A stretch of 64,000 nt of DNA from an uncultured bacterium (lineage in GTDB: Bacteria; Acidobacteriota; Aminicenantia; UBA2199), in assembly GCA_965371805.1 (NCBI GenBank), contig CBDUZW010000004.1, positions 82,954 to 146,953 on the forward strand, read 5' to 3'. A program made the translations under genes and the position numbers. Positions within the stretch are counted from its first letter, which is position 1, and every line of letters starts with the position of its first letter. Of this stretch, positions 6,330-27,199 are shown in pieces. The notes under the pieces are model-generated. The model made no database searches. It saw only the letters and a list, made by a program, of their open reading frames with translations, and was not told the origin of the DNA.

Positions 6330-7183
6330 ATTACTGGTTAGTAGAACAGGGAGTTTCAACCAGCCTCTCTTAGAACGATAGGTGAACCTCTCAGCTCATA
6401 CCACTCCCGCCGTCCAAAGCTCATCCTCCTACCCTAAACCCAAAACACCAATGTGCAAATAATCCCGGCATTGTACTACTAACATTATTTAACCACTTTT
6501 TTAGCCCCTTTGATGTCATGCCTGAATCGCTTATACTTATTACGAATCCATTTCCATAATCTAAAATTTAACTTAAAAAGGAAGGAACTTAAACATCGTT
6601 TATGAAATTATCCATAGTAATTTATCCAACCTTGTACCTTTGGGTTTATCAGTTTCGCAATATCTTCTATACTAAGATCTGTTCTCAAATGTATTTTCAT
6701 TCTCCGTATTTCACTACCCATTTTCTTTATTGCTTCATTACTAGCTCCGGGTAAAAATTCTTTGAATTTTCTCCCCTTAGGTGATTTTGCTGTTCTTTCA
6801 CGAAATGAGTATCCCGGAAATGTGAATTCCGAATTTTCATGTTTAGCTTTACGATTACTATCCTTGCAGTAGATAATCTTTGTCTTTTCCGGATGAAGTT
6901 CCAGTTTGCATTTTTCCAACCTCTTACTGATTTTAGCTAATACAAACACCGCTTGCCTGAAACTTTTGCAATGTACAATTGCATCATCTGCATAACGCTC
7001 AAACGCCAGAGATGGAAACTCTCTTTCCAGCCACTTATTAAATGCATAATGTAGAAAAATATTTACCAAAAAAGGACTATTAACTCCTCCTTGAGGGGTT
7101 CCTTTAGAACGTTCTTCAATATTTCCATTCTTCTTCTGTACAGGTGCTTTCAATGTACATCTTTTGAAGATGATAAAAAGCAA
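6330..7183 (-). mobile_element. Truncated group II intron: C-terminal part of the intron-encoded reverse transcriptase/maturase plus a GC-rich 3' intron RNA segment (domain V/VI region)
   Basis: The ORF at 6608-7183 encodes RT motifs including FERYADDAIVHC (YADD) and the maturase X-domain tail QGWINYYG. The N-terminal RT domains 0-4 are missing. 6330-6600 is locally GC-rich and paired, which is unusual for this genome. Confidence 0.75.
6608..7183 (-). pseudogene. Group II intron reverse transcriptase/maturase, N-terminally truncated fragment (191 aa)
   Basis: YADD motif, thumb/X domain, and C-terminal QGWINYYG. Lacks RT domains 0-4, so it is non-functional. Confidence 0.75.
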
Positions 7184-13522: not shown

Positions 13523-13876
13523 ATGAGTAATTTGAAAGTTATTAAAGAAAAAAAATCGGATACTTTAGTCTTCTCCGAGAAACTTCTTAAAGAAGATATA
13601 AGGGAATTGAAAAAGGAAATCTTAGCTTCTATAGATAGAGCTGAGAAGATAACTATTAAATTTGATGGATTAAAAGAAACAGACATATTTTTTGTTCAAT
13701 TATTATGTGCTGCCCATAAATATGCAGTCAAAAAAAAAAAAAATCTGGAGATCTCGGAAGCTCTTCCTGAACAATTGAAGACTGTTCTTGAAAACTATGG
13801 TTTTTATAGGGAAAAAGGCTGTATTAAAGAGAAAGAAGATGACTGTTTTTGGTTTAAAGAGGTGACAAATGTCTGA
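13523..13876 (+). CDS. Small STAS-like (anti-sigma-antagonist fold) protein preceding cheA
   Basis: 117 aa. ITIKFDGLKETDIFFVQLL resembles the STAS motif DLSxVxFIDSSGL. The stop overlaps the cheA start. Confidence 0.3.
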   Translation: MSNLKVIKEKKSDTLVFSEKLLKEDIRELKKEILASIDRAEKITIKFDGLKETDIFFVQLLCAAHKYAVKKKKNLEISEALPEQLKTVLENYGFYREKGCIKEKEDDCFWFKEVTNV

Positions 13877-16025
13877 TGAAATAGAAGAGTTTGGAGAGAT
13901 ATTCAAAGAAGAAACATATGAATTGTTAATTGAGTTAGAAAATTCACTTATGGAATTGGAAGGTGAACCTGAAAACATAGAGTTGATTGGAAGTATATTT
14001 CGGGCATTACATACTATAAAAGGTTCTGGAGCTATGTTTGGTTTTGAAACGATATCGGCTTTTGCACATCAGGTAGAGAATGTATTCGACCTTGTTAGAG
14101 AAGGATCTATAAAGGTTACAAAAGATTTGATAGGATATACTTTGCAGGCAAAAGATTTTATTCGTGAAATTGTTGAATCTACCGATTTAACTTCTGATCA
14201 GGAGGATATGAAAAACGATATTCTAACTAAATTGAAGGACTATAGTGATAAGAACTCTTCTGATAAGCACAGTATTGAAAAAAAGGTAGATGAGAAAGAG
14301 GGAGAAACAATAGAGCCTGAAAAAACAGATATGCAAAGTCTGCAGGACAATGAATTAGAAATAACTTTCAGGATTAGATTTACTCCTTCAGAAAAAATAC
14401 TTCAAGGAGGGAATGATCCTGCTGCATTAATCTCTGAATTGAGAGAACTAGGAAAAAGCAGTATTGTTGTTCATGTGAATTCAATTCCTGATTTAGATGA
14501 GATTCAACCGGATTATTGCTATATCTACTGGGATATTCTTCTTACAACTAATCAAAGTCTTGATACTATAAAAGATATATTCATATTTCTTGATGAAGAG
14601 TCTAAGGTTCAAATAGATATAATTGATGAAGGTGATGCTGAAGAAGGAGACTATAAGAAACTAGGACATATTCTTGTAGAGAAAGGTGATCTGTCGATTG
14701 AAGAAATGAAGAATGCCGTTTCCAAACAGCCGAAGTTTGGCGAGATTCTGGTTGAAAAAGGAATAGCTGAGCCTGAAAAGATTGTATCAGCCTTAATGGA
14801 ACAGAAACATGTCAGGGAGGTTAGAAAGGAAAGAACTGATAAGACCGTATCGGCTTCTCTCAGAGTGTCTTCTGTAAAAGTTGATAAACTTGTAGATCTG
14901 GTAGGAGAAATGGTCACAGCTCAGGCTAGATTAGCACAGATAAGTATCAATGTTGGTGATAATGAGCTAGTAGGTTTATCAGAAGATATAGAAAGATTAA
15001 TTTGGGAATTGAGAGACAATACAATGGAAATGCGGATGCTGCCTTTTGGCAGTACCTTTGGCCGATTTAGAAGACTGGTCAGGGATCTATCTGAAAATCT
15101 AAATAAGGATATAGAATTGACTACTCTTGGTGGAGAAACTGAACTTGATAAAACGGTAATTGAAAAACTGGGAGATCCACTGACTCATATTATCAGAAAC
15201 TGTCTTGATCACGGAATAGAGGAACCAGATGAAAGGGTAAAAAAAGGCAAACCAAAGCAAGGGACAATACATCTTTCTGCTTATCATTCAGGTGCAAATG
15301 TTATAATACAAATAAGCGATGATGGCGCAGGATTAGATCTTGAAAGGATTGAAAAAAAAGCTATCAGCAAGGGATTAGTGCCTACAGACAGAAAATTATC
15401 AACCAAAGAGATTAGCGGTTTGATATTTGAACCGGGTTTTTCGACAGCACAGGAAGTAACCGATGTTTCAGGCAGGGGTGTTGGCATGGATGTCGTGAAG
15501 AAGAATATAAACCTGCTGCGCGGATTAATTGATGTTGATAGTGAGTCTGGTAAAGGAACTACTATAAAACTTAAAATACCTTTAACATTGGCAATTATTG
15601 ATGGTCTATTGGTTGCGATTGAAAATGAAAAATTTGTTTTACCATTATCAATGGTTGAGGAATGTATAGAAATTAAATATAGTGATATAGAGAATGCAAA
15701 TGGAAGAAATTTTGTAAAAAGAAGAGGTGAGTTGATCCCTTATATTAATCTTAGAGAAGTTTTTAAATTAAAGGATGAAATTCCTCTTTTGCAACAAGTT
15801 GTAATAACCAATATTGATAATGAAAGGATTGGATTTGTGGTTGACACTGTTATTGGAGGTCATCAAACTGTCATAAAATCTTTAGGGTCAATATATAAAG
15901 ACATTGATGGTGTTTCAGGTGCAACAATACTGGGAGATGGTACAATTGCACTTATTCTTGATGCACTTAAAATCATTAATAATGCTGAATTGGATAAGTT
16001 AAATAAAGATAAAAAGACTGGGTAA
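13869..16025 (+). CDS. cheA: Chemotaxis histidine kinase CheA
   Basis: HPt motif ALHTIKGSGAMFGFE, dimerisation and HATPase regions (DDGAGLD, GRGVGMDVV), and a C-terminal CheW-like domain. Confidence 0.9.
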   Translation: MSDEIEEFGEIFKEETYELLIELENSLMELEGEPENIELIGSIFRALHTIKGSGAMFGFETISAFAHQVENVFDLVREGSIKVTKDLIGYTLQAKDFIREIVESTDLTSDQEDMKNDILTKLKDYSDKNSSDKHSIEKKVDEKEGETIEPEKTDMQSLQDNELEITFRIRFTPSEKILQGGNDPAALISELRELGKSSIVVHVNSIPDLDEIQPDYCYIYWDILLTTNQSLDTIKDIFIFLDEESKVQIDIIDEGDAEEGDYKKLGHILVEKGDLSIEEMKNAVSKQPKFGEILVEKGIAEPEKIVSALMEQKHVREVRKERTDKTVSASLRVSSVKVDKLVDLVGEMVTAQARLAQISINVGDNELVGLSEDIERLIWELRDNTMEMRMLPFGSTFGRFRRLVRDLSENLNKDIELTTLGGETELDKTVIEKLGDPLTHIIRNCLDHGIEEPDERVKKGKPKQGTIHLSAYHSGANVIIQISDDGAGLDLERIEKKAISKGLVPTDRKLSTKEISGLIFEPGFSTAQEVTDVSGRGVGMDVVKKNINLLRGLIDVDSESGKGTTIKLKIPLTLAIIDGLLVAIENEKFVLPLSMVEECIEIKYSDIENANGRNFVKRRGELIPYINLREVFKLKDEIPLLQQVVITNIDNERIGFVVDTVIGGHQTVIKSLGSIYKDIDGVSGATILGDGTIALILDALKIINNAELDKLNKDKKTG

Positions 16026-16028
16026 ATT

Positions 16029-16901
16029 ATGGGAACAATATTAGATCCAAATACAATATATAAAGCAAAATTAAGTGAAAAGGATTTTTTAAAACTTCAG
16101 AATATTATTCAAGGTGAATATGGGATAAAAATGCCTTTAACTAAAAAAGATATGCTTGAAGCTCGATTAAGAAAGAGACTTAAAGCTCACTCTTTTGCTA
16201 ATTTCTCACAATATTGTGATTACTTATTTTCAGAAGTAGGCATGAAGGAAGAGTTAATTCATATGCTTGATATGGTCACTACTAATAAAACAGATTTTTT
16301 TAGAGAAGCTGATCATTTTGATTTTCTTATTAAATCTGTTCTTCCCGGAATGATCACCGGTGAAGGGCTTGGAATAAACAAAAAACTTATGATCTGGAGT
16401 GCCGGGTGTTCTACTGGTGAAGAACCATATACTCTAGCAATGGTCCTTAATGAATTTAGAGAAAGGGTCCCAGGGCTTAGTTTTCAATATTTGATTTTAG
16501 CAACTGATCTCTCTTCAAGAGTTCTTGAAAGTGCTCAAAGGGCTGTTTATCATGAGAATAAAATTGTCCCGGTTCCGAAAAATGCTAAAAATAAGTATAT
16601 ATTAAGAAGTAAAGACCCTTCCAAAAAATTAGTTCGGATTATTCCTGAATTAAGATCATTGATAAAATTCAGACGATTGAATTTTCTTGATAGTAATTAT
16701 GGAATGAGAGAGCCCATTGATATAGTCTTCTTTCGAAATGTCCAGATATATTTTGAAAAGGAGACACAACGTTCTATACTTTTAAAAATTTATAATACTA
16801 TGAGGCATGGAGGGTATTTATTTATTGGACATTCTGAAACTTTAAATGGGTTGGATCTCCCGTTTGAGCAAATAATACCAACAGTTTATAGAAAGGTTTA
16901 A
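16029..16901 (+). CDS. cheR: Chemotaxis protein methyltransferase CheR
   Basis: SAM-methyltransferase region IWSAGCSTGEEPYTLAM. 290 aa. Immediately follows cheA. Confidence 0.9.
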   Translation: MGTILDPNTIYKAKLSEKDFLKLQNIIQGEYGIKMPLTKKDMLEARLRKRLKAHSFANFSQYCDYLFSEVGMKEELIHMLDMVTTNKTDFFREADHFDFLIKSVLPGMITGEGLGINKKLMIWSAGCSTGEEPYTLAMVLNEFRERVPGLSFQYLILATDLSSRVLESAQRAVYHENKIVPVPKNAKNKYILRSKDPSKKLVRIIPELRSLIKFRRLNFLDSNYGMREPIDIVFFRNVQIYFEKETQRSILLKIYNTMRHGGYLFIGHSETLNGLDLPFEQIIPTVYRKV

Positions 16902-16920
16902 CTTGAGGAGCTGACTAAGA

Positions 16921-17985
16921 ATGAGAAAAATTAAAGTTTTAATTGTTGATGATTCTGCTAGTGTTCGCCAAACTCTTAATAAAATACTCTCATCTGATCC
17001 TGAAATAGAGGTAGTAGGGACCGCCTTTGACCCGTTTAATGCGGCTGAAAAACTGGAAACTATTGTACCTGATGTAATAACACTTGATATTGAAATGCCT
17101 CGAATGGATGGAGTTACTTTTTTAAAAAAACTAATGAGCCAGTCACCAATTCCAGTTGTAATATGCTCAAGTCTTGCTGAAAGAGGAGCTGAAACAACTT
17201 TAAAGGCAATAGAGTATGGTGCTGTTGAGATAATTGAAAAGCCTAAAATAGGGACAAAAAATTTTTTTGAAGAATCGAAGATCATGATCTGTGATATTAT
17301 AAAAGCTGCATCAAAGGCTAATGTAAAAAAACTCTCTAATCTAAGGAGTTCATACAATAAAAAACTTTCTGCAGATGCAATAATACCAAAATCCAGATCA
17401 GGTGCAATGTTGAAAACTACTGAAAAAATTATTGTAGTAGGTGCTTCAACAGGCGGAACTGAAGCCTTGAGGGTTTTTCTTGAATCGATGCCTTTGGACT
17501 CTCCCGGTATTGTAATCGTTCAGCATATGCCTGAAAATTTTACTAAAGCTTTCGCAAACAGGATCAATGGATTATGTGAAATAACAGTTAAAGAAGCTTC
17601 TGATAATGATACGATCATACCTGGACAAGCACTTATTGCCCCAGGCAATAAACATATGTTGCTGAAAAGAAGTGGAGCAAGATATTATGTTGATATAAAA
17701 AAGGGACCTCTTGTTTCCAGACACAGACCTTCAGTTGATGTTCTTTTTAGATCTGCAGCAAGGTACGCAGGTAAAAATGCTGTAGGGGTTATTATGACCG
17801 GGATGGGAGATGATGGAGCGAAGGGAATGCTTGAAATGATGGAAGCTGGAGCGTATACAATTGCTCAGGATGAAAACAGTTGCGTTGTTTTCGGGATGCC
17901 CCAGGAGGCAATAAAACACGGTGGAGTAAAAAAGATACTTCCATTAAAGAACATTGCTCATGCCGCATTAAGGGAGTGTTTTTAA
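16921..17985 (+). CDS. cheB: Chemotaxis response regulator protein-glutamate methylesterase CheB
   Basis: N-terminal receiver (KVLIVDDS...DIEMPRMDG) plus a C-terminal methylesterase with GASTGG and HMP motifs. Confidence 0.9.
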
Positions 17986-21561: not shown

Positions 21562-21960
21562 ATGGATTTAAGAATAGTTGCTATTGATGATGATAAAAAG
21601 ATAACAGTATTTTTGAAAAAGGAACTTGAAAAATCAGGTAATATAGTTTTTACTGCAAATAATGGTACTGCAGGATTAGAACTTGTTAAAAAAAAAAATC
21701 CGGATCTTGTTATATGTGATATGCTGATCCCTGGAATTCATGGTGCTGAACTAGCTAGGCAGTTAAGGGCTGATCCTCTTCTTACAGATTTAAAAATTAT
21801 TTTGATGACAGCGGTTTATAAAAAAATCAGCTGGTTAGTGGAATTAAAGTCATTGGCTGATGGTTTTCTTGATAAACCCTTTGGAATTCCCCAGGTAACA
21901 GAATTGATTAATAAAGTAATGGTGAAAAATAAAAAAAATAGGAGAGAAGATGGGAAATAA
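21562..21960 (+). CDS. Single-domain response regulator (receiver only)
   Basis: DDD...ICDMLIPGIHG receiver signature. 132 aa. Confidence 0.8.
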   Translation: MDLRIVAIDDDKKITVFLKKELEKSGNIVFTANNGTAGLELVKKKNPDLVICDMLIPGIHGAELARQLRADPLLTDLKIILMTAVYKKISWLVELKSLADGFLDKPFGIPQVTELINKVMVKNKKNRREDGK

Positions 21961-22324
21961 AGTTGTAATAGTAGATGATGATGTAAAAATTGTAATTTTA
22001 CTTGAAAAAGTTCTTGCCAAGCTGGGATTTGAGGTTTTCAGTGCTGGAGATGGGGATAAAGCTCTGGAACTTGTAAAAAAGGAAAAACCTGATTTGTTGA
22101 TTAGCGATATGTTGATCCCTGGCATTCATGGAATTGAACTGTCAAAAATGGTAAAACAGGATCCGGACTTAAAGGATACGATTGTAATTTTAATGACATC
22201 TGTTTATAGTAAACTTGAATATACATCCAAAGATATGACTTCACAAGCGGATGAATTTATAGAAAAACCAATTGATGTAAAAGATATTATTAGTCTGATT
22301 GGCAGATTGAAAGATTGGAGCTGA
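21950..22324 (+). CDS. Single-domain response regulator (receiver only), tandem paralog of the previous gene
   Basis: VVIVDDD...ISDMLIPGIHG. About 45% identical to the upstream receiver. Overlaps it by 11 nt. Confidence 0.8.
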   Translation: MGNKVVIVDDDVKIVILLEKVLAKLGFEVFSAGDGDKALELVKKEKPDLLISDMLIPGIHGIELSKMVKQDPDLKDTIVILMTSVYSKLEYTSKDMTSQADEFIEKPIDVKDIISLIGRLKDWS

Positions 22325-22348
22325 CCTTATCTTAAAAGACAAATAATA

Positions 22349-24160
22349 ATGAATAAATTAAAAAAAGGTGGAAGCAGTGATGTTGATTCTGTTTACAATC
22401 GAGAATTTGAGATTCTTGAGAAAGCTTTAAAATATCTTGATTCTGATGGTATTCCAAATGAAGAATTTTATGGAGAGTATAAAAACCTCGCAAAGAATTA
22501 TAAAAAATTACTGCGGCAGACTATCAAGATAACTAAAGTTGGAGATAGTAACCAGAGAAAGGTTCTTCAGGCAAATGATAAAATTGAAGAACAAAATAGT
22601 GAACTTGAAAAAGCAAGAAAAGAAGCTGATAGAGCAAATAGTGCAAAAAGTGATTTTCTTGCGAAGATGAGCCATGAGATAAGAACGCCGATGAATGCAG
22701 TTCTTGGAATGACCGAATTGACTCTGTTAACCGATTTAAATGCGGAGCAGCTTGATTATCTGCAAACTGTCAAAAGTGCTGGACAGAACCTTCTCCATAT
22801 CATAAATGATATTTTAGATTTTTCAAAAATTGAAGCGAAACAGTTAACACTTGAAAGTATAGACTTTGACTTGAATGAATTGATAACATCAACTGTAAAA
22901 ATGTTAACTGTAAATGCAGAAAAAAAAGGGTTGAAGCTACTCTCAAAAATAGAAAAAAATGTGCCAATTGTTTTGAGAGGTGATTCGGTTCGTATAAGAC
23001 AGATTATAATTAATCTTATAGGTAATGCAATAAAATTTACATCTGAGGGGAATATTTTAATAGGTGCCGCTCTTGTTGATGAGAAAAATCAGAGAGAGGG
23101 AATATTTAACGTGCTTTTTTCGATAACAGATAAAGGTATTGGAATGAATGAGGAACAACAGGGGAAGATTTTTGAAAGTTTTAGTCAGGCAGATAGTTCC
23201 ACTACAAGAAAATATGGAGGAACCGGATTAGGCCTGGCAATATGTAAACAGCTGTCTGAACTGATGGGTGGAGGCATAAGTGTTGTGAGTGAACCGGGAA
23301 ATGGTAGTACTTTCAGCTTTTCAGTACTACTAAAACAAGGAGATCCCAAAGTTCTGGAAGAGTTTAAAAAAGAAAAAATGGTTGATGTTAAAGATATCAG
23401 CCCATTAAAGATACTTCTTGCCGAAGATAATAAGATGAACATTAAGTTAGCCCTTACCTTTTTAGAGAAGGCAGGACATTCAGTGACAGTTGCATATAAT
23501 GGTATAGAAGCTTTGAATGAATTAAAAATGGGGCGATTTGATGTGATTCTTATGGATGTTGAAATGCCTGGTATGGATGGACTTGAAGCAGCCGCATTAA
23601 TAAGGAAAGGTGAGTGTGGAACTGAAAAAAAATCAATTCCTATCGTTGCGATGACCGCACATTCTCTCCCTGAATATAAAGATAAAGTATTTAAAGCTGG
23701 AATGAATGAGTTTATTACTAAACCTATAGATCTTGCATTGTTAAACAGAACTCTTGCCAAAATTATTCCTGAATATTCAAATGTAGACCTAAAAGTTAAA
23801 ACATCATATATCAAACCGGATTTAGATGAAACTATAAGGTTTAATAAAAAGAAAGCTATTGATAAACTAGGTGATGATCTTGATTTGTTCAAACAATTTT
23901 GTGGGATGTTTGTAGATGAAATACCTGAGATTTCAAAGCAATTAAATATTGTTATTGAAAATAAGGATAGTGAGGAAATCAGAAAAAAAGCACATTATTT
24001 AAAAGGTTCGGCTGCTATGCTTGGATTAGATATTATATGTGAGATTTCAGCAAAGCTCGAAGCTGCCGGGAAAGAGAATAAGTTAGAGGAGACAGGAGAA
24101 TTATTTAAGACACTCTCAAATGAACTTCTGATTTCAGAAAAATTAATTGCAGAATTATAA
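22349..24160 (+). CDS. Cytoplasmic hybrid sensor histidine kinase: N-terminal helical module, HisKA, HATPase, receiver and C-terminal HPt
   Basis: H-box [15 protein letters not shown] (His109). GNAIKFT and GGTGLGLAI ATPase boxes. Receiver [14 protein letters not shown]. HPt motif [12 protein letters not shown]. No TM segment. Confidence 0.85.
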
Positions 24161-24169
24161 AGGAAAAAT

Positions 24170-24931
24170 ATGATCAAATCTAAAAGACTTGAAAATGATA
24201 TGTATGAGAAAGAATCAATTCTTCTTGAAAATGTAGTACAGGGTTCTTTAAATGAAAATCTCTCAAAAGATGAATTACATTCAAAACTTTCTTTTTTAAT
24301 TAAATCTTATGGCAAGTTGTTAAAACTTATTAGAAAAATAACAAAGGTAGGGGATGCTAATCAGAGAAAGCTTGTTCTTGCATATGATGAAATAGAGAAA
24401 CAGAAGAAAGAACTGGACAGTGCTTATTATAAGTTAGACCTATTGGCAAGAAAAGATCCTCTTACTCAACTTTCAAACAGAAGAGATTTTCTTGAAAAAG
24501 TAAATACAGAGATGGTAAGGTTTGAAAGGGATAAAAAAGAATTTGCTTTTGTTCTAAGTGATATAGATGATTTTAAATCTTTTAATGATAAATATGGACA
24601 TGACTGTGGTGACTTTGTTTTAAAAAAAGTTTCTGAAGTATTTTCGAAAACAATCAGAAAACAGGATGCCGTAGGCAGGTGGGGGGGGGAAGAATTTATT
24701 CTGCTACTTCCTGGATCCCTGGCGGATGGTGCAATAAAGATCGCTGAAATAATAAGAAAAGCGATATCTGAACAGACATATGTATATGGAGATCTAAAAC
24801 TATCTATTACTATGACTTTTGGCGTATCTATTTATGATGGATCCGGGGATATCGATAGTTGCATTAAAGAAGCAGATGAGGCTTTATATCTAGGCAAACA
24901 AAAGGGAAAAAATTGTGTTATATGGAGATAA
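24170..24931 (+). CDS. GGDEF diguanylate cyclase with an N-terminal helical stalk (SiaD-like)
   Basis: GGEEF active site (RWGGEEF). Upstream RxxD-type region. No TM segment. The N-terminal 45-70 aa block is shared with the hybrid kinase. Confidence 0.8.
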   Translation: MIKSKRLENDMYEKESILLENVVQGSLNENLSKDELHSKLSFLIKSYGKLLKLIRKITKVGDANQRKLVLAYDEIEKQKKELDSAYYKLDLLARKDPLTQLSNRRDFLEKVNTEMVRFERDKKEFAFVLSDIDDFKSFNDKYGHDCGDFVLKKVSEVFSKTIRKQDAVGRWGGEEFILLLPGSLADGAIKIAEIIRKAISEQTYVYGDLKLSITMTFGVSIYDGSGDIDSCIKEADEALYLGKQKGKNCVIWR

Positions 24932-25493
24932 TATGGATAAACTAAAACTTTTTGAGTATTATAATAAGATGTGTAACCAGAATATTGTTCTGGACTTCCA
25001 GGGAGTTATTTCTCAGGATCTGCTTGTAGGCATGGCTGAGATGATAAAAAACAAATTCACTCAGAAATTTGGAAAAACAACAATGGTAAAAAAAATGTTT
25101 TCCGTATTTATTGAGCTTGCACAGAATATTGCCTACTATTCTTTTGAGAGGGTTGAGCTTGAAAAAGGGAAAGAAAAAGTTGGTGCCGGTATTATTGTTG
25201 TAACTGAACAGGATACATATTATACAATTACATCAGGTAATAAGATAGAGAAAGATAAAGCCATGGCAGTTGTAAAACAATGTGAGCATTTGAATAGATT
25301 AAATGAAGATGAATTGAAAGTTTATTATAAAGGGAAACTGAGAGAACCAAGACCTGAAGGAAAAAAAGGCGGTGGAGTCGGTTTAGTAGAAATTTTGAGA
25401 AAAGCAAAAAGTAAGATAGAGTATAAGGTAACTCCTATCAATGATATAGAATCATTTTTAGTGTTATCTGTGAAAATAGAGGAGATATTATGA
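24915..25493 (+). CDS. SiaB-family protein kinase-like (GHKL/anti-sigma-kinase fold)
   Basis: 192 aa. ISQDLLVGMAEMIK near the N-terminus and the G-box KKGGGVGLVEILRKA near the C-terminus fit the SiaB-family pattern. Overlaps both the DGC gene and the SiaC-like gene. Confidence 0.5.
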   Translation: MLYGDNMDKLKLFEYYNKMCNQNIVLDFQGVISQDLLVGMAEMIKNKFTQKFGKTTMVKKMFSVFIELAQNIAYYSFERVELEKGKEKVGAGIIVVTEQDTYYTITSGNKIEKDKAMAVVKQCEHLNRLNEDELKVYYKGKLREPRPEGKKGGGVGLVEILRKAKSKIEYKVTPINDIESFLVLSVKIEEIL

Positions 25494-25864
25494 AAGATCT
25501 AAAAGTTAAAAAAACAAAATACACACTGGATATTGATTTTAATGGAACAACAGGAGTGCTGGAGATGGCTGGTTCCTCTTATCCTGAGAATGCGATTGAT
25601 TTTTATAAACCAATAATTAATTGGATAGAATCCTTTATTAAAGAAGAAGCTAAACCCATAACTTTGAATTTCAGACTGAATTATCTAAATACTAGCTCGA
25701 CAAAATGTATACTTGATATATTTGAAATTCTTGAAGAATATAACGAAAAGAATGAGGTAATAGTTAATTGGTACTATGAAGAGGATGATGAAGATATTCT
25801 GGAAACTGGTGAAGAAATGGGAGAAGATATGGAAATCTCAATGAACTTCATCCCTATTAAATAG
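25490..25864 (+). CDS. SiaC-like DUF1987 phosphoprotein
   Basis: 124 aa. GSSYPENAIDFY and the LNYLNTSSTK block, with Thr at position 68, match the SiaC/DUF1987 signature including the phospho-acceptor threonine. Confidence 0.6.
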   Translation: MKDLKVKKTKYTLDIDFNGTTGVLEMAGSSYPENAIDFYKPIINWIESFIKEEAKPITLNFRLNYLNTSSTKCILDIFEILEEYNEKNEVIVNWYYEEDDEDILETGEEMGEDMEISMNFIPIK

Positions 25865-26021: not shown

Positions 26022-26424
26022 TTAATAAAATGTTAGAATTGCACTTTTATCACAGCCCTCATCTTAGGATGAAAAGTACAGTAATAGCTCCAATCACCTT
26101 CCCATTGAAAAGTATGCTTAAAAGTCATGTTGGGAGATAGTGTTGCGGAATTAAAATCTTCAAATAACACCCTTGAGAGATCGCTCGTTGAACTAGGAGT
26201 ACCACTGTAACAGTATGGTTTGAAGATCCTTTATTAACCCATGTGATCTCTGTGTTTGGGTTGGTTACTGTAATGCTTGTTGGTACAAAATAGTTGTCAT
26301 ATATATATACTGTATTGATTGGCGGCGTTTCATCTTTCGCTTCCGCTACAGCACTTTTCTTGCAGCCTGGTATTGATAATATAGTTAAGGATGCGATTAA
26401 TAATATTATCAATGTTTTCATCAT
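26022..26424 (-). pseudogene. Cupredoxin (blue-copper) lipoprotein interrupted by a single-nucleotide frameshift near 26200
   Basis: Frame 1 (the 26125-26424 ORF) gives a lipobox signal peptide (LSIPGC) and ...TEITWVNKGSSNHTVTV. A second frame continues ...SDLSRVLFEDF...TFKHTFQWEGDWSYYCTFHPKMRAVIKVQF*, which supplies the Cys, His and Met copper ligands. Confidence 0.5.
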
Positions 26425-26671
26425 ATCAACCTCCTTTGAAATTGCATTAGCCTATATTGTTATAAATTAACGAAAAATTCAACAAAATTATTTTTTTTTT
26501 AAAATTAAATTTAAAATGAAAGAATTATTCCACAATGCTTAAGTAAAATAAGCAATAAAAAATATAGTTAAATCATTTTATTTTCTGAAATTAAATTTTT
26601 AATTATATATTATCTATAAACTATTAATATGAAATCTTAAGAAGGAAAAAAGAAGAGAAATCAACGCATTT

Positions 26672-27199
26672 TTATTTCACAATAATTTTTGTCGAAATAA
26701 TTGCCATCAGTTTACCTTTCCCATTTCTAAACATCAGTATACCTTTTAACTGTTTCTGGCTCCTGGAAAAATTAAAAATGGGATTGATTATCTGTTTCCA
26801 GACTGACGGTTCAGTGCTTGGGAAAGTTGTGGGTTCAACTCCAAATATATGTGTTCTATTACCTTTGGGTGCAATGTAACCTCTAGGCAAATATTTGCCT
26901 AGACTCACCGGTCTTTTATTATCTCCAATTTTAAGCAAAATCTGGGTGAGCTCTGAAATTTTTGCTTTACCTAGTGCATTTAAGACATTGACCATTTGTA
27001 TTCTATAATTGCCGCTATTTGATTTTTCCATCGTCAACACTCTTATAGAGGGGTTTGTATTAAAGGAATTCCATCTATTTAACATATTTTTCTTTGAATC
27101 GTTTTTAGAGAGAATTGGTCCTGTACAAATAATCAAAAATACAATAGTTAAAATGAATAAATATTTTTTTTTCATTCTTCCCCCTGAAAGTCTTCCCAC
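26672..27199 (-). CDS. Hypothetical secreted protein
   Basis: ORF with an N-terminal signal/TM helix (MKKKYLFILTIVFLIICTG). No recognisable domain. Confidence 0.35.
   Translation of the reverse strand: MGRLSGGRMKKKYLFILTIVFLIICTGPILSKNDSKKNMLNRWNSFNTNPSIRVLTMEKSNSGNYRIQMVNVLNALGKAKISELTQILLKIGDNKRPVSLGKYLPRGYIAPKGNRTHIFGVEPTTFPSTEPSVWKQIINPIFNFSRSQKQLKGILMFRNGKGKLMAIISTKIIVK

Follow-up and report, generated by a model that had tools for sequence, protein, structure and literature searches.

The SiaABCD system of Pseudomonas aeruginosa (PDB 6KKO and 7E6G) consists of the PP2C phosphatase SiaA, the kinase SiaB, the phospho-switch protein SiaC, and the diguanylate cyclase SiaD. In the SiaD structure, Thr68 of SiaC hydrogen-bonds S82 and Q86 of the cyclase, SiaC is further contacted by SiaD residues K77, V78, R80, I81, D83, R84, Y85, and M88, and phosphorylation of Thr68 prevents SiaC-SiaD binding (PMC8457831). 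For DUF1987 proteins, the family that includes SiaC, the same 2021 structure paper suggested only modulation of "adjacent proteins" (PMC8457831). Here, we analyzed a Sia-like locus in a 64,000-nucleotide stretch of DNA (hereafter, the window) from an uncultured Aminicenantia bacterium (UBA2199; GenBank assembly GCA_965371805.1, contig CBDUZW010000004.1, positions 82,954 to 146,953 of the forward strand). It encodes SiaB- and SiaC-family proteins together with a diguanylate cyclase and a hybrid histidine kinase that share an N-terminal helical stalk, the core of which is likely the counterpart of the SiaC-binding motif of SiaD. To our knowledge, SiaABCD has been studied only in P. aeruginosa, as a biofilm switch with SiaD as the sole output. 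The searchable literature holds no mention of DUF6272, SiaB-family, or SiaC-like systems outside Pseudomonas.

Two further kinds of described system resemble this locus. In the "exchangeable toolkit" of RsbT/RsbU from the Bacillus general stress response (eLife 2025), a partner-binding module and a coiled-coil linker are common to PP2C phosphatases, GGDEF proteins, and histidine kinases (PMC12143880). As in that system, a small partner would sit on the N-terminal helical module of a dimeric enzyme, and the module has spread over varied outputs (here kinases, GGDEF proteins, class III cyclases, and PP2C). Unlike in RsbT/RsbU, no sequence relationship was detected between the stalk and the RsbU N-terminal domain; the putative partner is the STAS-like phospho-protein SiaC, whereas RsbT is a GHKL kinase; and SiaC would be controlled by Thr phosphorylation, whereas RsbT is controlled by release from the stressosome. 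STAS-type partner switches that control cyclases are represented by HptB-HsbR-HsbA-HsbD of P. aeruginosa and BgrSTUWV-BgrR of Sinorhizobium (PMC8457831). According to the summary given there, these systems, like the one proposed here, have a phosphorylatable antagonist-like protein that swaps partners and modulates a diguanylate cyclase, with His-Asp cross-talk. Unlike the window, they use canonical STAS proteins and REC-PP2C regulators, and that summary mentions no histidine kinase among them that bears a shared docking stalk (PMC8457831).

The cyclase gene of the window (24170..24931; this and all genes of the locus are on the + strand) encodes 253 amino acids comprising the stalk and a GGDEF domain (Pfam GGDEF, 149.6 bits) with a GGEEF active site and an RKQD I-site. 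Its top NCBIfam model is SiaD (NF038266), with an alignment that starts at residue 43 and a score of 169.6 bits, below the equivalog cutoff of 290. The next gene (24933..25493) encodes a GHKL-like, SiaB-family Ser/Thr protein kinase, which scores 169.3 bits against the NCBIfam family model NF038262 (cutoff 85) and 126.9 bits against Pfam DUF6272, but 107.1 bits against the SiaB equivalog NF038264, below its threshold of 225. In the alignment with Pseudomonas SiaB (PDB 6kko_A, E-value 2e-20), the catalytic Glu (IEL), the QN box, and the GGGVGL G-box all match. An initial open reading frame of about 190 residues was right as to family; its GTG at 24915 is probably merely the start of the longest frame, and translation probably begins at the ATG at 24933, where a ribosome-binding sequence, GGAG, lies 6 nt upstream and the product has 186 residues, the same length as in a close relative.

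The SiaB gene overlaps by 4 nt the gene of a 124-residue SiaC-family phospho-switch protein (25490..25864), which matches Pfam PF09345 (DUF1987) at 144.4 bits (cutoff 24.5) over residues 7–122 and Pseudomonas SiaC (PDB 6kko_C) with an E-value of 2.6e-22. Because this alignment has no gaps up to residue 88, Thr68 of the window protein (codon 25691–25693) corresponds to Thr68 of Pseudomonas SiaC, and Y65, N67, and S69 are identical as well. The score against the SiaC equivalog NF038265 is 116.9 bits, below 150. Since all three proteins fall under the NCBIfam equivalog cutoffs, they are, judged by these profiles, family members and not orthologues of the Pseudomonas proteins. The first-pass annotation of this DNA had proposed precisely these three genes, in D-B-C order, with a helical stalk on the cyclase and the phospho-switch Thr at SiaC position 68. 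Pfam, NCBIfam, and PDB matches bear it out: the frames are real, profile hidden Markov models (HMMs) place 24915–25493 among SiaB-family kinases and 25490–25864 in SiaC/DUF1987, and structure prediction returns the stalk.

Upstream of the cyclase lies a gene (22349..24160) for a soluble hybrid histidine kinase of 603 residues, with the architecture stalk-HisKA-HATPase_c-REC-Hpt (Pfam: HisKA, 72.4; HATPase_c, 100.1; Response_reg, 91.8; Hpt, 48.5 bits; stalk HMM E-value 3e-41). HisKA with its conserved His, HATPase_c, a receiver, and Hpt are thus all present in a single chain, as in a hybrid histidine kinase phosphorelay. The annotation had recorded a phosphorelay kinase next door; the kinase is real, but it is not a mere neighbor, for it carries the same stalk as the cyclase. 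The accompanying description of the locus as a reduced or rewired SiaABCD is correct as regards the missing linked PP2C gene and the gene order, but gives only part of the picture, as the kinase belongs to the module. Like SiaABCD, the window has a kinase of the SiaB family and a SiaC-family protein in which the residues around Thr68 are the same; unlike SiaABCD, it lacks a linked SiaA and adds the hybrid kinase, with the same stalk, and stand-alone receivers.

The N terminus of the kinase (amino acids 15–111) is homologous to that of the cyclase (36% identity, E-value 1e-16). Both enzymes start with a helical stalk of about 100 residues (kinase module, amino acids 1–102, 22349..22654; cyclase module, amino acids 1–96, 24170..24457), and the window contains these two copies and no others. 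The stalks share a core with the consensus KITKVGDxNQRK (kinase I59–V72, 22523–22564; cyclase R55–L68, RKITKVGDANQRKL, 24332–24373). The two cores are identical at 11 of 12 positions, while the whole modules are only about 36%–38% identical. Across the family, conservation of the 14-residue core is 0.64–0.69, about twice the 0.29–0.33 of the remaining module. The motif Asp is conserved in 303 of 304 copies, and an alignment of 40 stalk-kinases has just three invariant columns, namely E19, D66, and the phospho-accepting H109. When six stalk module sequences were searched against Pfam, no significant family was found, the RsbU N-terminal domain included.

Structure prediction by AlphaFold2 gave a cyclase model (predicted local distance difference test score, pLDDT, 87.5) in which a helix at residues 11–26 is followed by an unbroken helix, 33–93, that runs into the GGDEF domain. 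In the model of kinase residues 1–340 (pLDDT 90.5), one helix, 37–126, spans both the motif and His109. A Foldseek search of the PDB with the cyclase model returned SiaD (7e6g_A) as the top hit (E-value 3.4e-19) and the sole full-length match.

SiaD is the top PDB match by sequence profile as well as by fold. An 18-sequence stalk profile run against the whole PDB gave SiaD 7e6g_A as its best hit with an E-value of 0.011, marginal by itself (a six-sequence profile matched SiaD at 0.67). The profile core, "KiTrvGDssQkKL," aligned on K77–M89 of SiaD, which is the proximal SiaC-binding motif, such that G61, D62, and Q65 of the window cyclase are the equivalents of S82, D83, and Q86, respectively. 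Some members of the stalk family have the exact Pseudomonas core, R-[IVM]-S-D-R-Y-Q. SiaD and the window cyclase have in common a long N-terminal coiled-coil stalk and an h-[SG]-D-x-x-Q motif.

They also have in common the heptad register of that motif to the GGDEF domain. We measured the register as the number of residues from the motif Q to the Asp of the GGDEF "DxLT" sequence (cyclases) or to the H-box His (kinases). In all 120 non-redundant cyclases the distance was 17, 24, 31, 38, 45, or 59 residues, every one equal to 3 modulo 7; 97 of them, including the window cyclase (Q65 to Asp96 of DPLT), have the value 31. Among kinases, 38 of 42 showed distances of 33, 40, 47, 54, or 61, all equal to 5 modulo 7, with a mode of 40 (28/42, including the window kinase, Q69 to His109). 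The proximal motif Q of Pseudomonas SiaD lies 17 residues before the DPLT Asp, in the same 3-modulo-7 series, and the window cyclase, at 31, differs from it by exactly two heptads of additional stalk. (The SiaD stalk sequence was displayed through HMMER with a query made from the L008 cyclase edited at the motif; scores from that search were not used as evidence.) Taken together, the register, the genomic linkage described below, and the marginal profile E-value suggest that the stalk core is likely the counterpart of SiaD's SiaC-binding motif.

We propose the following mechanism. SiaB would phosphorylate SiaC at Thr68, and unphosphorylated SiaC would dock on the dimeric coiled-coil stalks of cyclase and hybrid kinase alike. 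Each stalk is predicted to form one uninterrupted helix whose heptad register is fixed relative to the GGDEF domain or to the His109-bearing DHp helix; because such a rigid coiled coil is tied in register to the catalytic domain, docking would stabilize or re-register the dimer and so alter catalysis. For the cyclase, the precedent of SiaD would point to activation by SiaC. Docking would alter the output of the kinase too, so that one Thr phospho-switch would co-regulate cyclic di-GMP (c-di-GMP) synthesis and a His-Asp phosphorelay, in which the kinase would hand phosphate on to the stand-alone receivers through its own REC and Hpt domains. Resetting of SiaC would fall to a PP2C phosphatase that is most likely encoded elsewhere in the genome. 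We put at roughly 60% the probability of this scheme, in which SiaC binds the two stalks and controls c-di-GMP synthesis together with the phosphorelay; the estimate also takes in the genes at 21562–25864 forming one signaling operon. Upstream of the cyclase, the receiver and kinase genes share its strand and are spaced by 9 to 24 nt or overlap slightly; scans for promoters and terminators performed no better than on shuffled sequence.

A SiaC-anchored scan of species-representative genomes yielded more than 574 loci, and we retained 80. In the non-Bacteroidota loci among these, a stalk-bearing protein is found next to SiaB/SiaC in every case but one, the Chlorobiota locus L011, where SiaB-SiaC is present and no stalk match was obtained. 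The outputs on these stalk proteins include HisKA/HATPase, GGDEF, class III cyclase, SpoIIE/PP2C, GAF, and a small Cys-rich tail. A set of 31 metagenome loci was also collected by the motif pattern alone, derived from the six-sequence alignment; 11 were too short to judge, and SiaB and/or SiaC is adjacent in 16 of the 20 informative ones. Of four stalk proteins looked up individually, two are directly flanked by SiaC and SiaB, one being a stalk-GAF-cyclase and the other a stalk-SpoIIE protein placed between the SiaC and SiaB genes. In a close relative, locus L085 (87% identity in SiaC), the operon recurs in the same chromosomal context with a single receiver gene and, again, without a PP2C. 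The arrangement of REC, stalk-hybrid kinase, stalk-cyclase, SiaB, and SiaC recurs in Aminicenantes and on several metagenome contigs.

With the two stalks of the window as query, an exhaustive search in HMMER gave 260 representative clusters at E ≤ 1e-3, and among the matches listed the module is at or near the N terminus; the 18-sequence stalk alignment, used in a word-indexed homology search, gave none at that threshold. The best 150 of the 260 clusters comprised 46 histidine kinases (11 with REC and 5 with Hpt), 26 GGDEF proteins, 10 class III cyclases, 9 SpoIIE phosphatases, 8 GAF proteins, 2 Ser/Thr kinases, and 2 HD-type proteins. Histidine kinases are the most frequent hosts of the stalk in this sample. 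This bears on a rival explanation, namely that an ordinary SiaB/SiaC/SiaD switch acts on the cyclase alone and that the kinase, just a co-transcribed neighbor, has at its N terminus a paralogous dimerization coiled coil that was gained through domain shuffling and is not bound by SiaC. Experimental support as SiaC targets exists only for SiaD-type cyclases, and stalk-hybrid kinases with a REC gene but with no SiaB/SiaC nearby do occur (L101/L119, L111, and L112). On the other hand, the stalk is found most often on kinases, and stalk-kinases occur with SiaB-SiaC in loci devoid of any cyclase, as in L003, L006, L019, L108, and L110. The agreement of the kinase and cyclase cores despite the divergence of the modules around them, the heptad-quantized spacing from motif to His, and the invariance of the motif Asp beside the catalytic His likewise argue against it. 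We consider a cyclase-only switch unlikely.

In a second alternative, the stalk docks another partner, such as the stand-alone receivers or SiaB itself, and SiaC is involved only indirectly. Nearly every stalk-hybrid kinase has a REC gene immediately before its own (L001, L085, L088, L089, L094–L099, L101, and L119), even where SiaB/SiaC is missing, and stalk-GGDEF-SiaB fusions exist. However, short stalk-kinases, stalk-cyclases, and stalk-PP2Cs are also encoded with SiaB/SiaC and no REC gene (L003, L043, L048, L121, and L122), and the core aligns with the structurally defined SiaC contacts of SiaD, with a register in common. A SiaC-stalk-GGDEF fusion (P0271) speaks in the same direction, though as "Rosetta stone" evidence for a SiaC-stalk association this sequence is weak because it represents a single cluster. 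Another partner for the stalk thus seems improbable to us. A further apparent fusion, stalk-GAF-SiaB in L013, was discounted since it contains an unknown residue from an assembly gap.

Several observations weigh against docking of SiaC on both stalks. Ser82 of SiaD, which bonds Thr68 of SiaC, is replaced by Gly in the window stalks, and the positions of Arg84 and Tyr85 are unconserved. The window proteins contain a single motif per chain, unlike the two in SiaD, for a predicted stoichiometry of 2:2 versus 2:4; the distal motif of SiaD, at 49 residues (0 modulo 7), is outside the cyclase series. No locus-specific covariation of the stalk cores was detected (similarity of 0.69 within and 0.64 between loci). 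Four of the 20 informative stalk-anchored loci, on longer contigs, have no SiaB/SiaC nearby, and the same is true of two of the four stalk proteins looked up. A SiaC-regulated histidine kinase has not been reported in the searchable literature. Finally, the Bacteroidota SiaB-SiaC loci, about 65 of the 80 kept, are a misfit, having only housekeeping genes and no stalk effector near them.

These Bacteroidota pairs, which mostly have neither a stalk effector nor a PP2C gene adjacent, are a separate class outside the stalk model. In L014–L084 (e.g., L018:8003-10381), SiaB-SiaC directly follows a methyltransferase gene of the RlmL type (THUMP/UPF0020) and converges on an ABC transporter, and many Bacteroidota loci contain a second SiaC near genes for GMP synthase and an S41 peptidase.

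Beyond the window, we regard as evenly balanced the broader proposition that the stalk of about 100 residues is an undescribed, portable input module for SiaC docking. Through it SiaB/SiaC, with or without a PP2C phosphatase, would act on histidine kinases, on diguanylate and class III nucleotidyl cyclases, on PP2C phosphatases, and on Ser/Thr kinases, in several phyla that are mostly uncultured. On this view the main targets would be two-component kinases rather than cyclases, with the window as a representative case. If the stalk is indeed the SiaC docking site, the switch would be a general adaptor that joins Ser/Thr phosphorylation to two-component phosphorelays and to c-di-GMP and cAMP/cGMP synthesis, spanning Aminicenantes, Omnitrophota, Acidobacteriota, Ignavibacteriota, and Thiomargarita and its relatives. 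The motif and its heptad register would amount to a sequence rule predicting SiaC targets in any genome, and the operon would offer a small soluble system, free of a membrane sensor, for the control of a histidine kinase by a partner bound to its coiled coil.

Recurring loci with the arrangement of the window often encode an additional short stalk-kinase, absent from the window and its close relative. These soluble proteins of about 320–330 residues are always convergent on SiaC (L001:8362-9360, L003:8394-9365, L089:9819-10790, L091:3839-4804, and L105:9743-10756, all on the − strand). In their core, G-D-[MKR]-[NH]-Y, Tyr takes the place of the equivalent of SiaD Q86, and these kinases may differ from the other stalk proteins in affinity for SiaC or in the phospho-state they prefer. 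In L009 (10410-11859), SiaB and SiaC are fused into a single 314-residue protein (DUF6272 and SiaC by Pfam), followed by a 170-residue protein made of a stalk and a Cys-rich tail (…LPICSNCKKIRDDEGYW…HGLCPTCC…) that belongs to no Pfam family.

We also checked the window for a phosphatase that might act on SiaC. An iterated profile seeded on the SpoIIE domain, which recovered a dozen PP2Cs in other loci, found no PP2C/SpoIIE in the 64 kb. Pfam analysis of ten unidentified or signaling open reading frames revealed no PP2C either, the remaining genes being classed as housekeeping on visual inspection or from the labels in the syntenic relative. The statement of the first-pass annotation that SiaA is missing therefore stands for the locus. 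As a statement about the genome it does not: among 16 distinct stalk-type sister loci for which ~9.5 kb or more of context was available, a linked sensor-PP2C was found in 6 and none in 10, and stalk-PP2Cs can be encoded elsewhere. The absence of a linked PP2C from the window is thus typical of the clade and not evidence of genome-wide loss. The linked forms are beta-propeller/Y_Y_Y-(HisKA-HATPase-REC)-SpoIIE, GAF-SpoIIE, and Pkinase-AAA-GAF-SpoIIE, and stalk-SpoIIE proteins are encoded either away from SiaB/SiaC or, as noted above, between them.

One could envisage a system with no phosphatase at all, in which SiaC is phosphorylated one way and reset by turnover or dilution, or in which SiaB mainly sequesters SiaC. 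The failure to find a PP2C gene in the window and in nine other long sister loci would accord with this, but adjacent sensor-PP2Cs occur in the six sister loci, and 9 of the best 150 stalk proteins are themselves PP2Cs, one of them on a contig without SiaB/SiaC. From these counts it follows that unlinked phosphatases are normal in the clade. Moreover, SiaB retains its catalytic Glu, N-box, and G-box, and our view of this genome spans 64 kb. A phosphatase encoded elsewhere is no less probable than a system without one; we hold the latter to be unlikely, and conclude that the phosphatase resetting SiaC is probably unlinked.

Proteins of about 1600 residues with beta-propeller (Reg_prop), Y_Y_Y, HisKA, HATPase_c, REC, and SpoIIE domains are encoded beside the stalk/SiaB/SiaC module in L091 (4789-9582) and L110 (3190-8052, − strand); presumably, each is a sensor histidine kinase joined through a receiver to a PP2C that resets SiaC. 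A cluster in L122 (5529-13110) encodes SiaC, stalk-SpoIIE, DUF6272 (SiaB), SBP-PAS-SpoIIE, an HNOBA-class III cyclase, a second DUF6272 protein, and dCache-SpoIIE. The stalk on the phosphatase encoded there between SiaC and SiaB hints at substrate recruitment or feedback.

The stand-alone receivers of the window, REC1 (21562..21960; 132 residues; Pfam Response_reg, 76.7 bits) and REC2 (21950..22324; 124 residues; 84.8 bits), are 47% identical, and their genes overlap by 11 nt. They are tandem paralogues, and because the close relative L085 has a single receiver gene, the pair looks like a lineage-specific duplication. REC2 is the probable end acceptor of the phosphorelay.

About 4 kb upstream of the Sia-like operon, a chemosensory cluster (13523-17985) is accompanied by a gene for a small STAS_2-like protein, whose 28.9 bits fall slightly short of the 29.2 cutoff. 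This gene overlaps the start of a CheA-like gene, after which come CheR and CheB; the STAS_2-like protein may be a second component of the partner-switch type. Downstream, between SiaC and a Sua5/YrdC-like gene, two open reading frames on the − strand (26125-27199) encode proteins of 99 residues (a weak cupredoxin-like match) and 175 residues (no family). In the syntenic relative both are missing and the Sua5 gene directly follows SiaC; the two frames are probably an insertion or decayed genes. An open reading frame of 191 residues at 6608-7183 (− strand) resembles, by eye, a fragment of a reverse transcriptase (…RYADDAIVHC…) and is perhaps the remnant of a group II intron or retron.

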